NCBI GenBank assembly: GCA_023819145.1
Contig: JAMWCW010000003.1
Span: 4,321-68,320, forward strand
Origin: Candidatus Omnitrophota bacterium
GTDB taxonomy: Bacteria; Omnitrophota; Gorgyraeia; DTHP01
Direction of reading: 5' to 3'
DNA: 64,000 bases
Shown one piece after another: positions 33,125-38,942 of the stretch. How positions within the stretch are numbered: position 1 is the stretch's first letter; every line of letters starts with the position of its first letter. The translations under genes and the position numbers were made by a program. Below the pieces are notes generated by a model. It did no database searches. It was not told where the DNA came from and was given only the letters and a program-made list of their open reading frames with translations.

Positions 33125-33967
33125 ATGGTAGAGATAATTTGCAAGAAGATAATTGCTTATAGTTTAGGAACACGTATCGTCCAACTGGAGTTAAAGTCTC
33201 CTCTAATTGCAAAAAAAACTCTCCCGGGGCAATTTGTAGTGTTAATGGTTTCCGAGAAAGGAGAGCGCATTCCTCTGACAGTAGTAGATAAAGATGAAGA
33301 AAGAGGGACAATTACCTTAATTTTCCAAGAAGCAGGGTTTACCACACGGTCTTTAGGAAGTTTGAAAGAAGGGGATTTTTTATATGCTTTGGTAGGACCA
33401 TTAGGAAATTATACAGAGATAAAGAATTATGGAAAAGTAGCTTTGGTTGGAGGAGGGGTGGGAATTGCGGAAATTTATCCGGTAGCCAAGGCTTTGAGAA
33501 AGGAAAACAATCATCTTATTACCATATTAGGTGCAAGAACCAAAGATTTATTGATTTTAGAAAAAGAACTAAAACAAGTATCTCAGGAATTGTATGTTAC
33601 TACCGATGATGGTTCTTATGGTAGAAAAGGATTTGTTACCGATGTTTTGCAAGAATTATTAACTATACACTATGCGCTGAATGCTATAGAATTAATCTAT
33701 GCGGTCGGTCCTGTTCCTATGATGAAAGGGGTTTCTCAAATTGCTAAAGATAGGGGAATAAAAGCCATTGTTTCTTTGAATGCTTTAATGGTCGATGCTA
33801 CAGGAATGTGCGGATGCTGTAGAGTAACCGTTGATGGAAAGACAAAATTTAGTTGCATTGATGGGCCAGAGTTTGAAGCCCAAAGTATAGATTGGGAGGA
33901 ATTAGGGAAAAGAACAAAGATGTATCAGGATAAAGAAACTCATATTTGCAAACTATACAACCGATGA
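33125..33967 (+). CDS. NfnA/SudB-like FAD/NAD-binding electron-transfer subunit (PyrK family) with [2Fe-2S] site
   Basis: 280 aa; ferredoxin-NADP reductase-like fold and C-terminal CGCC..C cluster motif; paired with GltD-like subunit. Confidence 0.7.
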   Translation: MVEIICKKIIAYSLGTRIVQLELKSPLIAKKTLPGQFVVLMVSEKGERIPLTVVDKDEERGTITLIFQEAGFTTRSLGSLKEGDFLYALVGPLGNYTEIKNYGKVALVGGGVGIAEIYPVAKALRKENNHLITILGARTKDLLILEKELKQVSQELYVTTDDGSYGRKGFVTDVLQELLTIHYALNAIELIYAVGPVPMMKGVSQIAKDRGIKAIVSLNALMVDATGMCGCCRVTVDGKTKFSCIDGPEFEAQSIDWEELGKRTKMYQDKETHICKLYNR

Positions 33968-35412
33968 GAAAAGAGCCAGTTAAAGTAAAAGAAATTAATA
34001 TTGAGGAAAGAACCAAAAGTTTTAAAGAGGTGGTTTTGGGTTATACTGAAGAAGAGGCAATTCTTGAAGCAAAAAGGTGTTTACAGTGCAAAAATCCTAC
34101 CTGTATCCTGGGGTGTCCTGTAGGAATAGATATAAAGAAATTTATTAATCAGATTGCCCAAAAAGATTACGAAGGTGCATATTGTACAATTAGAGAAAAA
34201 AATAATTTTCCCTCTATCTGTGGAAGGGTTTGCCCTGCAGAATATCAGTGTAGAAAAGCTTGTGTTTTGACTAAACGAGGTTCTATTTTTGCCTCTTTTG
34301 AAGCGATAAATATTCATTTCTTGGAGAGATTTGTGGGAGATTGGGGAATGATAAATATAAATTCTAAATCCGAAGCTCTAAATCCGAAGGTAAAGGGAAT
34401 AAAGAATTTAAACTTGAAATTTAGAGATAAAAGAGTGGCAGTTGTGGGTTCCGGGCCTGCAGGGCTATGTTGTGCGGGAGAGCTTGCGCGTCGTGGAATT
34501 GCAGTAGATATCTATGAAAGTTTACACAAACCAGGAGGTGTTTTGCGTTACGGAATACCTAATTTTCGTTTACCTCAAGAGATTTTAGATAGCGAGATAA
34601 ATTACCTGAGAGAGTTAGGAGTAGAAATAATGACTAATTTTGTCATTGGGAAATTAAAAACCGTAGATGAACTTTTTAAAGAGGGTTATTCCGCTATTTT
34701 TTTAGGTTTGGGTGCAGGAATCCCTACTTTTTTAGGAATTAAAGGAGAAAATCTCTGCAACATCTACTCGGCAAATGAGTTTTTAACCCGCGTTAACCTT
34801 ATGTTTGCTTACAAATTTCCCGATTATCATACGCCTCTAAATATAGGAGAGAGAATTATAGTAATTGGTGGAGGAAATACGGCAATGGATGCGGCAAGGT
34901 CTGCTTTAAGACTTCAGGTAATGAATAGAATTAAACCCGATGTTACGATACTTTATCGACGTACAGAGAGTGAGATGCCTGCAAGGCGTTTAGAGATTGC
35001 TCATGCTCAAGAAGAGGGAGTTAAATTTAAATTTTTAGTCCAGCCGCAGGAATTTGTTTCTGATAAACAAGGGTTTCTTAAAGGGCTTGTTTGTTTAGAG
35101 TGCAAGTTAGGAGAACCTGATGATTCTGGAAGACCAAAATCTATTCCTGTTCCAGGAAGTGATTTTCTTTTGGAAACGGATTTAGTAATCGTGGCTGTGG
35201 GCTTAAGGGCAAATCAGTTGCTTACTAGGGTTACTCCTGAGCTTAAGGTTGATAAGTATGGCGATATCATTGTTAATCCGGAGACGATGGAAACTTCGTT
35301 AAAGAATGTTTTTGCTGGTGGAGATATTGTAGGCGGAGAAGGGACAGTAATTGAAGCAATGGGTATGGCAAAGAAGGCAAGCGCTTCTATAATTAATCTC
35401 CTTTTCCCCTAA
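33964..35412 (+). CDS. NfnB/SudA-like subunit (glutamate synthase small-subunit family; 2x[4Fe-4S], FAD, NADPH)
   Basis: ATG at 33964 (ATGA overlap with upstream gene); Cys clusters CLQCKNPTC..C and CGRVCPAEYQC; Rossmann VAVVGSGPAGL. Confidence 0.7.
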   Translation: MRKEPVKVKEINIEERTKSFKEVVLGYTEEEAILEAKRCLQCKNPTCILGCPVGIDIKKFINQIAQKDYEGAYCTIREKNNFPSICGRVCPAEYQCRKACVLTKRGSIFASFEAINIHFLERFVGDWGMININSKSEALNPKVKGIKNLNLKFRDKRVAVVGSGPAGLCCAGELARRGIAVDIYESLHKPGGVLRYGIPNFRLPQEILDSEINYLRELGVEIMTNFVIGKLKTVDELFKEGYSAIFLGLGAGIPTFLGIKGENLCNIYSANEFLTRVNLMFAYKFPDYHTPLNIGERIIVIGGGNTAMDAARSALRLQVMNRIKPDVTILYRRTESEMPARRLEIAHAQEEGVKFKFLVQPQEFVSDKQGFLKGLVCLECKLGEPDDSGRPKSIPVPGSDFLLETDLVIVAVGLRANQLLTRVTPELKVDKYGDIIVNPETMETSLKNVFAGGDIVGGEGTVIEAMGMAKKASASIINLLFP

Positions 35413-37396: not shown

Positions 37397-38014
37397 ATGG
37401 TTGCGATTATCAATTATAGAATGGGCAATTTGAGAAGCGTAGCTAAAGCTTTTGAAAAAGTAGGCGCAGGAGTGTTAGTTACTTCTAAAATTAAAGATTT
37501 AAAAGAAGCAAAAGCGATAGTCTTACCAGGAGTAGGAGCTTTTGGGCAGGGAATGAAGCATCTTAAAGAATTGGGAATTATCTCAGTTCTAAAGGATGAG
37601 ATAAATAAAAGGAAACCTTTTTTGGGAATCTGTTTAGGAATGCAACTTTTACTTAGTTATAGCGAGGAACATGGGAAACACAAGGGTCTAGATATCATCA
37701 AGGGATTTGTAAAACGTTTCCCAGAAAATTTTAAAATTCCCCATATGGGATGGAATCAAGTAAAAATCCGAAATCCGAAATCCGAAATCCGAAACAAGAT
37801 TTTAAAAGGAATCCCAGATGGTTCTTATTTTTATTTTGTTCATTCCTATTATGTGGTGCCTGAGGATAAGAAGGTAATCGTAGCGACCACAGACTATGGG
37901 ATAGGATTTCCTTCAGTAATACAAAAAGAGAATATTTGGGGAGTGCAATTTCATCCGGAAAAGAGTCAAGAATGGGGGTTAAAGATAATTAAAAATTTTG
38001 TTAATTTTGTTTAA
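37397..38014 (+). CDS. hisH: imidazole glycerol phosphate synthase, glutamine amidotransferase subunit
   Basis: 205 aa; GICLGMQLL catalytic Cys, HMGWNQV, YFYFVHSY; contains in-frame heptamer repeat tract. Confidence 0.9.
   Translation: MVAIINYRMGNLRSVAKAFEKVGAGVLVTSKIKDLKEAKAIVLPGVGAFGQGMKHLKELGIISVLKDEINKRKPFLGICLGMQLLLSYSEEHGKHKGLDIIKGFVKRFPENFKIPHMGWNQVKIRNPKSEIRNKILKGIPDGSYFYFVHSYYVVPEDKKVIVATTDYGIGFPSVIQKENIWGVQFHPEKSQEWGLKIIKNFVNFV
37764..37794 (+). repeat. tandem heptanucleotide repeat (ATCCGAA x4) inside hisH
   Basis: aaatccgaaatccgaaatccgaaatccgaaac read directly; encodes KIRNPKSEIRNK. Confidence 0.9.
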
Positions 38015-38117
38015 TTAGTTAATTTCGTTTAATCGTTATGTTCGTTACTCTCGTGAGGGATAATCTATTTAGTTAAACGAACAAAACGAGCCACGCGTAC
38101 AAAAGAAAGGACCGGTT

Positions 38118-38942
38118 ATGTTAGCAAGAAGAATTATTCCCTGTCTGGATGTTAAAGATGGTCGCGTAGTAAAAGGGATAAATTTTGTTAATTTACGCGA
38201 TGCCGGAGACCCTGTGGAGCAGGCAAAGATTTACGATAAAGAAGGAGCGGATGAGTTGGTTTTTTTGGACATTACTGCCAGTTTTGAAAAACGCTCTCCC
38301 ATCATTGAGGTGATAAAGAAAACTGCGGAGGCGATTTTTATTCCTCTTGCAGTGGGAGGAGGAATAAGAAATTTGGAGGACATTCGCCTCTTGCTTTCTT
38401 CAGGAGCAGATAAGGTTTCTGTAAATACTTTTGCAGTAAAAAACCCCAAGTTGGTTAAAGAAGCAGCGAAGGAATTTGGTAGTCAGTGTATTGTGGTAGC
38501 GATAGATGCTAAGAGAAAAATGAAATCCTCACCCTTGCGAGATAAGGCGTGCCCAACAAAGTTAGGCGGTGAATCCCGAAATCCAAAATTAAAGTGGGAA
38601 GTGTATATTCATGGAGGCAGAACCCCTACTGGTCTTGATGTTATAGAGTGGGCAAAGCGTGTTTATGATTTAGGAGCAGGAGAAATTCTCTTAACCAGTA
38701 TGGATAGGGATGGGACAAAATTAGGATATGACTTAGAATTGACCAGGAAAGTTGTTGAAGCGGTTAGAATTCCCGTGATTGCTTCTGGTGGAGCAGGGAA
38801 CTTAAAGCATCTTTTTGAGGCGTTTAAATTCGCTTTTGTAGATGCGGTTTTAGCTGCTTCCATATTCCATTACGGAGAATATTCCATTTCCCAAGCAAAA
38901 GATTATTTAAAGAAAAGAGGTATTCCCATAAGAGGAAATTAA
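38118..38942 (+). CDS. hisF: imidazole glycerol phosphate synthase, cyclase subunit
   Basis: 274 aa; (beta/alpha)8 HisF motifs ([32 protein letters not shown]); about 20-aa insertion after AIDAKR. Confidence 0.9.

Follow-up and report, generated by a model that had tools for sequence, protein, structure and literature searches.

An in-frame heptanucleotide array in the hisH gene of an Omnitrophota bacterium, a probable tolerated coding microsatellite

The 64,000-nt stretch of contig JAMWCW010000003.1 from a Candidatus Omnitrophota bacterium (hereafter, the window) carries a perfect tandem array of the heptanucleotide AAATCCG inside hisH, which encodes the glutaminase subunit of imidazole glycerol phosphate (IGP) synthase. 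The array is probably a tolerated coding heptanucleotide microsatellite, made of a seed plus 21 nt and housed in a permissive loop. The tract itself is a member of a known repeat class; what is new is its in-frame, orthologously shared, and evolving state in a loop of a conserved enzyme.

The hisH array and its reading frame

The features of the gene and of the array are as follows.
37397-38014, + strand: hisH open reading frame (ORF), 205 aa, glutaminase subunit of IGP synthase, intact
37631-37633, 37952-37954, and 37958-37960, + strand: HisH catalytic codons C79, H186, and E188
37739-37762, + strand: codons of the conserved strand P-H-M-G-W-N-Q-V, directly before the array
37763-37798, + strand: codons K123-K134; deletion of any three units leaves AAA ATC CGA AAC AAG (K-I-R-N-K), the putative 1.4-unit seed
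37764-37794, + strand: (AAATCCG)x4.4, a perfect tandem array of the heptanucleotide between the second bases of codons 123 and 133 (both included), HisH K-IRNPKSE-IRN

Read directly, positions 37764-37794 are AAATCCGAAATCCGAAATCCGAAATCCGAAA, that is, four copies of AAATCCG followed by AAA. Tandem Repeats Finder (TRF) returned period 7, 4.4 copies, 100% matches, and 0 indels, and the tract has the head-to-tail 7-nt units and beyond-chance length of a heptanucleotide simple sequence repeat (SSR). The two-unit 14-mer matches at 3 overlapping positions of the tract; with up to two mismatches, 6 matches were obtained against 0.89 expected, a number that 0 of 100 dinucleotide-preserving shuffles reached, so the tract is not a product of chance. 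A lag scan over periods 4-12 that allowed imperfect arrays returned it as the only short-period array in the 64 kb. The preliminary description of this DNA gave the unit as ATCCGAA, a rotation of the AAATCCG repeat with four copies at 37766-37793, and placed the array in frame inside hisH; its peptide, KIRNPKSEIRNK, is the one that the translated ORF gives for K123-K134. It had also asked about enrichment elsewhere, and within the window the unit is not enriched (13 copies of AAATCCG against 11.6 expected). An Rfam scan around the tract returned no family, folding revealed no RNA or DNA structure or hairpin above chance at the tract (z = -0.13 and +0.93), a scan of its surroundings gave no promoter or terminator signals above chance, and a literature search on the exact repeat or its peptides found nothing relevant.

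The class I amidotransferase fold, the Cys-His-Glu triad, and the hisF partner that identify a HisH are all present. The ORF contains a class I glutamine amidotransferase domain (Pfam GATase, E = 5e-22), and solved HisH structures match its product down to E = 1.5e-33 in a Protein Data Bank (PDB) search. The protein is 100% identical to an NCBI protein annotated as HisH from a Candidatus Omnitrophica metagenome-assembled genome (MAG), the next relatives being 75% identical, and an exact-protein look-up with it gave no contig on record. C79, H186, and E188 are invariant in an alignment of 35 homologs. Against solved HisH, gaps fall exactly at NPKSE and span 5 (4gud), 9 (1ka9), and 11 residues (1gpw). 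An AlphaFold2 model built on the alignment has a mean predicted local distance difference test score (pLDDT) of 93.7; it predicts a strand at residues 117-124 followed by a coil at 125-133, the lowest-confidence part (blocks of 81). As modeled, the array sits in a coil of an otherwise conserved, high-confidence HisH fold. The preliminary description held that this loop is shorter in other HisH proteins, which is so for the solved structures and for Thermodesulfovibrio and Nitrospirae homologs but not for many Omnitrophota relatives, whose loops are equally long.

Gain or loss of one unit shifts the frame of hisH, as the preliminary description had anticipated. Changes of -2, -1, +1, and +2 units give products of 150, 133, 157, and 140 aa, and all of these end at premature stops (133-157 aa) and lack H186 and E188; a frame shift upon unit change is a property shared with contingency loci. 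Removal of three units (21 nt) leaves a 198-aa protein whose loop, WNQVKIRNKILKGIPD (KIRNKIL), has the canonical 18-aa length, as in the Omnitrophota locus L006, and resembles KIRKENPLL in the Nitrospirae HisH P0116. Because this removal restores a canonical loop, the tract reads as a 1.4-unit seed (AAA ATC CGA AAC) plus 21 nt. Because 7 is not a multiple of 3, functional HisH is expected only at copy numbers three units apart, which accounts for an array of about 4.4 copies.

We infer a history that combines slippage, a 21-nt step, and neutrality. A seed of 1.4 units, AAA ATC CGA AAC (K-I-R-N), would have pre-existed in the solvent-exposed coil after the PHMGWNxV strand, and slipped-strand mispairing would have added three units to it (21 nt, 7 aa). 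The array would then be held at about 4.4 copies by purifying selection for an intact frame, with the extra IRNPKSE residues simply tolerated. In one Omnitrophota clade, this loop would have had the array for a long time or acquired it repeatedly. Turnover, whether through slippage of single units or through collapse followed by re-expansion, each in 21-nt steps, would homogenize the units of a genome and let their sequence drift from one genome to another. Among the three readings offered by the preliminary description, that of a tolerated microsatellite insertion agrees with the in-frame position in a coil and with the canonical loop left after loss of 21 nt, whereas a switch is not supported and an artifact is rejected.

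Period-7 arrays in related hisH genes and beyond

Comparison with related hisH genes, a check proposed in the preliminary description, found period-7 arrays with different units at the same site, that is, a feature that evolves lineage-wide. The DNA of relatives was obtained by exact protein look-up. In at least 10 related hisH genes from Omnitrophota, a period-7 array occupies the corresponding codons, which directly follow GWNx[V/I]. Their hisH loops compare with that of the window as follows.
Window: GAAATCC x4.4
L092 (75% identity): degenerate, AAAATTC GAAATTT GAGATTC GAAACTC
L081: AAAATTC x3.9
L087: AAAAATC x4.4, one mismatch
L093: AAAAGTC x2, then AAAAATC x2
L085 and L091: AAAAGTC x4.4 and x4.7
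L089: AAAAATC-like, exactly 21 nt longer than the L087 loop
L083: degenerate
L086: GCTACAG x4 plus degenerate heptamers
L216: AAGCCAG x3.3
L215: 8985-9015, the identical 31-nt AAATCCG tract in another reading frame (KSEIRNPKSE)

The HisH of L215 is only 62% identical to that of the window, and its tract lies 8 nt further into the gene.

For most of these loops the longest run of matches is 13-26 at lag 7, whereas each of the other lags gives 2-6. The main units can be ordered so that each differs from the next by one base (AAAAATC, AAAAGTC, AAAATTC, GAAATTC, GAAATCC); they are uniform inside one genome, and a difference between two genomes recurs at one and the same position of each unit. The encoded loop peptides (IRNPKSE, IQNSKFK, KSKVKSQ, SYRLQAT) bear no resemblance to each other between lineages. 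Uniform units within genomes, different units between them, and unrelated peptides together indicate concerted evolution of the DNA repeat and not conservation of the peptide. The single-base differences between units, combined with their uniformity within a genome, indicate that the array turns over yet stays in frame. Evolution by unit gain and loss, as expected of an SSR, is seen in the fixed substitutions between genomes, the 2+2 mix of L093, the additional 21 nt of L089, and the nested P0010.

Loop length is kept at 69 or 63 nt (75 or 69 nt when six more bases are counted). In a neighbor-joining tree made without the loop, sister taxa differ in their units, and the short-loop P0010 is nested among array bearers. 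At least three consecutive residues are repeated at offset 7 in the loop of 23 of the 111 HisH homologs, against 0-3 at offsets 4-6 and 8-10. Clusters of at least 90% identity include three array-bearing pairs with identical arrays (P0005/P0121, P0043/P0124, and P0103/P0126); P0043 and P0124 differ elsewhere in the protein. The pair P0019/P0149 differs mainly in the loop. No frameshifted hisH was present among the loci fetched, a set in which exact-protein look-up could not detect such alleles.

Heptamer arrays are in excess well beyond this gene. Across many phyla, 1.38 Mb of hisH-centered loci contained 79 perfect arrays of period 7 with 2.3 copies or more, 4 of period 8, and 3 of period 9, and only period 7 had a tail that reached 4-5 copies. 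The outgroup control, 78 non-Omnitrophota hisH loci among the matches listed from a contig scan on the generic patterns YFYFVHSY and HMGWNQVK, held 21 period-7 arrays against 0-3 for periods 5, 6, 8, and 9. This excess reproduces the published one: heptanucleotide repeats are described as the most abundant long SSR class in most prokaryotic genomes, with polymerase slippage proposed as their origin (PMC4679880 and PMC4692102, citing Mrazek, Guo, and Shah 2007). Coding SSRs are reported to favor units whose length is divisible by three (PMC4679880).

A metagenome scan for (AAATCCG)3 found at least 120 contigs, of which the 80 analyzed have GC contents of 0.32-0.70. Over the 45 nt to the left and to the right of 87 AAATCCG arrays, information content is about 0, and such unconserved flanks indicate that the tract does not belong to a larger mobile element; the marks of a miniature element (MITE, REP, or RPE-like), namely conserved flanks, a target duplication, or terminal inverted repeats, are absent from it. 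In viral contigs the AAATCCG pattern occurred at 25 loci, two composition-matched permutations at 13 and 7, and AAAGTCA at 18. We rejected AAATCCG as a special unit, its composition-matched permutations being only 2-4 times rarer in viral contigs.

In-frame (AAATCCG)3-4.9 arrays were found in GatA, a P-type ATPase, RluD, BioA, SecA, MtnA, NuoD, and UppS from unrelated organisms (metagenome contigs L102, L155, L164, L126, L165, L110, L163, and L114), and the identities of the array-bearing GatA, RluD, and BioA ORFs were confirmed. The BioA array is exactly +7 aa, SPK|KL in Bacillus subtilis becoming NPK-SEIRNPK-LEK. The same comparison placed the GatA and RluD arrays in regions of variable length among PDB homologs, so that only BioA gives a clean +7. 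The P-type ATPase array lies directly after DKTGTLT. Arrays within long open frames measure at most 35 nt; those of 38-81 nt occur only where the spanning open frame is shorter than 200 aa. In coding DNA only net changes of 21 nt would survive, and coding heptamer arrays are accordingly expected at about 1.4 + 3 units. A hard length limit near 34 nt for all heptamer arrays was rejected, because arrays of 38-81 nt exist in short frames and TRF shows composite arrays of 6-9 units. Several longer AAATCCG arrays are composites joined by AAGG (L101, L117, L129, and L136). Inverted pairs of AAATCCG arrays, 40-200 nt apart and some of them inside long open frames, were also observed.
L096, 2292-2389: inverted pair
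L099, 3100-3197: inverted pair
L101, 9196-9316: inverted pair
L123, 2134-2277: inverted pair
L172, 10588-10804: inverted pair

Shared units in hisF and the weighing of explanations

Two further sites in the window contain the hisH heptamer.
38118-38942, + strand: hisF ORF, 274 aa, partner subunit, 103 nt downstream of hisH
38517-38579, + strand: hisF insertion of 63 nt (21 aa, 9 x 7) relative to the closest relatives L081, L092, L083, and L087; exact placement ambiguous
34363-34389, + strand: 14-nt tandem duplication TCTAAATCCGAAGC x1.9, which contains AAATCCGAAG, and with it the hisH heptamer, twice

The HisF loop between AIDAKR and WEVYIHGGR contains GAAATCC, which is the hisH array unit, and RNPK is encoded in both proteins. 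GAAATCC lies just inside the left end of the hisF insertion (38522-38528) and across its right end (38578-38584), 56 nt apart, and the interior has no clean period 7. A small hairpin-like sequence, CACCCTT-GCGAGAT-AAGGCGTG, is found in that interior. The window holds no second copy of the 63-nt insertion, which leaves the idea of a dispersed element unsupported. The hisH array and the hisF loop, about 0.9 kb apart, share their unit in the window and in six other loci.
Window: GAAATCC
L092 and L081: GAAATTC or AAAATTC
L087: AAAAATC
L083: AAAAACC
L216: GAAGCCA
L044: 18 identical bases

In L085, L091, L093, and L215 the hisH and hisF units are not shared. The change of the two units together suggests either exchange between the two sites or a genome-specific favored unit. 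The duplication at 34363-34389 is in frame in a GltD-like oxidoreductase ORF (33946-35412), in the linker between the Fer4_20 and FAD-binding domains, and L089 has CAAAAAA x3 (4917-4937) in the equivalent GltD-like linker; the duplication may belong to the same heptamer family. The AAATCCG-containing sites of the gltD-like gene, the hisH array, and hisF all lie within 4.5 kb.

Arrays of unrelated units recur in frame in hisH of Deltaproteobacteria, Methylomirabilota, Nitrospirota, Ignavibacteria, and Planctomycetia MAGs, where they occupy one or the other loop flanking PHMGWN. The second hot loop of HisH, just before KxPHMGWN, holds CACTGGC (L008), CCCTCAG (L044), and ATGGACT (L046). In L052 the same hisH loop is masked with N. 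Among 29 HisF proteins examined, the loop from AIDAKR to WEVYxHGGR carries arrays in L002, L009, L044, L045, and L091, and further examples are L085, L086, and L216.
L008, 4317-4343: hisH array
L044, 10340-10367: hisH array
L046, 10354-10376: hisH array
L045, 10360-10393: hisH array
L007, hisH loop: hisH array
L002, 2381-2407: hisF loop array
L009, 7407-7440: hisF loop array
L044, 11942-11963: hisF loop array
L045, 11849-11989: hisF loop array

In the 78 control loci, perfect arrays were present in about 7 of about 140 his genes against about 5 of about 1000 other genes (gene totals estimated from locus lengths). The hisF arrays of L002, L009, and L045 are each followed by an approximately reverse-complementary array, so that a hairpin could form. 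The HisF of L045 has an insertion of about 85 aa built of ACAGAGG arrays. A Rokubacteria HisF (L059) has about 3 tandem copies of a unit of about 45 nt (GTGGCAGTGCGAAGCGAGCCGAAGGCGAGCGGAGCGCAC...) in the same loop, which indicates that the site tolerates other in-frame tandem repeats too.

Other features of the window were noted. The end of hisH and the 103-nt AT-rich hisH-hisF spacer (37994-38117) contain an 18-nt direct repeat (37997-38032) and an imperfect inverted repeat with arms at 38033-38046 / 38076-38089 (93% complementary) and 38024-38032 / 38073-38081 (100%). GC skew is positive in every 4-kb block of the window (0.07-0.28), and nearly all long ORFs are on the + strand, consistent with one replichore and a strong gene-strand bias.

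Several observations weigh against expansion of a local seed by slippage. A gain of three units in one step is a postulate, and gains made unit by unit would lead through null alleles with a shifted frame. Compared with the commonest loop, of 20 aa, that of the window has 5 aa more and not 7; the +21-nt reading presupposes an ancestral loop of 18 aa, as in L006. In situ slippage from random seeds does not predict shared units in hisH and hisF (permutation 8/5000 on the longest common substring, with kinship ignored). The recurrence of arrays in HisH and HisF loops across phyla is unexplained by it as well. Simple slippage explains only in part the AAATCCG start phase of 48 of the 87 arrays and their modal length of 32 nt, and in situ slippage does not predict that contigs chosen for an AAATCCG array frequently have another at a distance of kilobases.

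A possible, though clearly less probable, account is that one mutational process adds three units (21 nt) per event, frame-neutral by construction, and that genome-specific units spread between nearby sites. The units shared by hisH and hisF suggest such a spread. If this were true, the process would be a widespread, unrecognized source of 7-residue loop insertions in bacterial enzymes, including those in the essential SecA and GatA; the hisH tract would be one visible instance, and the Omnitrophota orthologous series a natural time course.

It is unlikely that the array acts at the nucleic acid level, as a multimeric platform in his DNA or mRNA that a genome-specific protein or small RNA binds and whose unit coevolves with that factor. 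Within a genome the hisH array and the hisF loop seed have one unit in common, and from genome to genome the two vary in step; copy number stays fairly close to 4.4; and genome-specific favorite heptamers have been reported (TAACTGA in Beggiatoaceae; GGGNATC in Xanthomonas and Nostoc, where four units are preferred). However, the test of covariation takes no account of kinship, and the units of L085, L091, L093, and L215 are unshared. AAATCCG is unenriched in the window, and its arrays are only 2-4 times commoner than those of composition-matched permutations; the tract has neither structure nor Rfam match, and no candidate factor is known.

We consider it quite unlikely that an array of about 31 nt arrived as a ready-made block from another locus, by copy-paste or templated repair. 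Arrival as a block would fit the preferred start phase and the modal length of 31-32 nt in diverse contigs (GC 0.32-0.70), the contigs with multiple or inverted copies, the identical 31-nt tract of L215 in the same loop but another reading frame, and the three AAATCCG-containing sites within 4.5 kb. The flanks are nonetheless unconserved and free of terminal repeats, and arbitrary heptamer units are about as frequent. Removal of 21 nt, not of 30-33 nt, restores the canonical loop, as it also does in BioA, and the one-substitution variants that neighboring lineages carry in the same register fit descent better than reinsertion.

A contingency locus, in which gain and loss of units reversibly switch histidine biosynthesis in a lineage that may live off hosts or neighbors, is very unlikely. 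The unit is not a multiple of three, changes of one or two units truncate HisH, the perfect identity of units and their turnover between genomes imply repeated changes of copy number, and the genes of both IGP synthase subunits are array hot spots. Against this, the array has only 4.4 units and lies in the middle of a housekeeping biosynthetic gene, unlike the many-unit arrays of surface genes; relatives of at least 90% identity keep identical arrays in three pairs; and none of the fetched loci has a frameshifted hisH allele, to which exact-protein look-ups are blind. Equivalent in-frame arrays are found in the essential genes secA and gatA, where an off state would be lethal. The low unit number, the mid-gene site, the housekeeping role, and the arrays in essential genes therefore leave a contingency switch unsupported.

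Highly improbable, too, is adaptation of the protein, in which a longer Lys/Arg-rich loop would have been selected for HisH function or HisH-HisF assembly. The long loop is kept across the clade at 60-75% identity and follows the interface strand PHMGWN. Its peptides are nevertheless wholly different between lineages, the conserved property being the DNA period, and relatives with a short loop branch within the clade; in the model, the loop is a coil of low confidence. An assembly or sequencing artifact, conceivable for a single MAG contig whose exact gene is without an independent copy on record, is excluded with near certainty by the length of the tract (31 nt, well below read length, and in frame in an otherwise intact gene) and by the recurrence of analogous arrays at the same codons in more than 10 independent assemblies (NCBI, ENA, JGI, and Logan), with an identical tract in L215.

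For the tolerated microsatellite that we favor, the consequences are practical as well as comparative. The hisH gene is intact and the tract is real, so that annotation as a pseudogene, an assembly error, or a phase-variable gene is not warranted. The prokaryotic heptanucleotide excess, known since 2007, has no accepted mechanism or function, and in-frame orthologous arrays of about 1.4 + 3 units with single-substitution unit changes offer a comparative handle on the birth, homogenization, and loss of repeats. Two points would, if true, be new: that arrays recur across phyla in the same loops of both IGP synthase subunits, and that hisH and hisF share units.

Comparison with known repeat systems

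Rickettsia palindromic elements are mobile palindromes of 100-150 bp with a conserved sequence that occur in frame in protein genes. The hisH tract resembles them as a short repeat tolerated in frame in a surface loop of a housekeeping protein, a situation found even in essential proteins. It differs from them in having no conserved flanks and no palindrome, and it looks grown from a local seed.

The promoter switch of Haemophilus influenzae hmw1A/hmw2A, (ATCTTTC)n, has been studied at 13-24 units (PMC8262952). Like the hisH array, it is a heptanucleotide SSR whose unit number alters gene output; in hisH, HisH would be lost upon gain or loss of a single unit. Known switches comprise many units and vary among isolates; they are located in promoters or at 5′ ends, and the genes that they control have surface or restriction-modification functions. 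The hisH array differs, with 4.4 units, a mid-gene site, a housekeeping enzyme, and identical arrays in three pairs of near-identical relatives.

The STRR of heterocystous cyanobacteria, GGGNATC (PMC4692102), and TAACTGA (PMC4679880) are likewise short 7-nt arrays, for which about four units are described as preferred (Rehm 2015). GGGNATC arrays in particular are reported to prefer four units in Xanthomonas and Nostoc (PMC4692102), and TAACTGA is named as the favored heptamer of Beggiatoaceae (PMC4679880). In these accounts one favored unit recurs per genome by a mechanism given as unknown, the arrays are mostly intergenic with hundreds of copies per genome, and the proposed G-quadruplex or translational roles depend on sequence. 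AAATCCG in hisH, unlike these, is not G-rich, is unenriched in the window, and is translated.

The closest likeness is to the long heptanucleotide SSRs of prokaryotes, which also have perfect 7-nt units, are described as commoner than those of periods 5, 6, 8, and 9, and occur in nonpathogens. The surveys describe such SSRs as mainly intergenic (PMC4679880 and PMC4692102), whereas the hisH array is in frame in a conserved enzyme, reads as a seed plus three units, and is shared by orthologs with turnover of its units.

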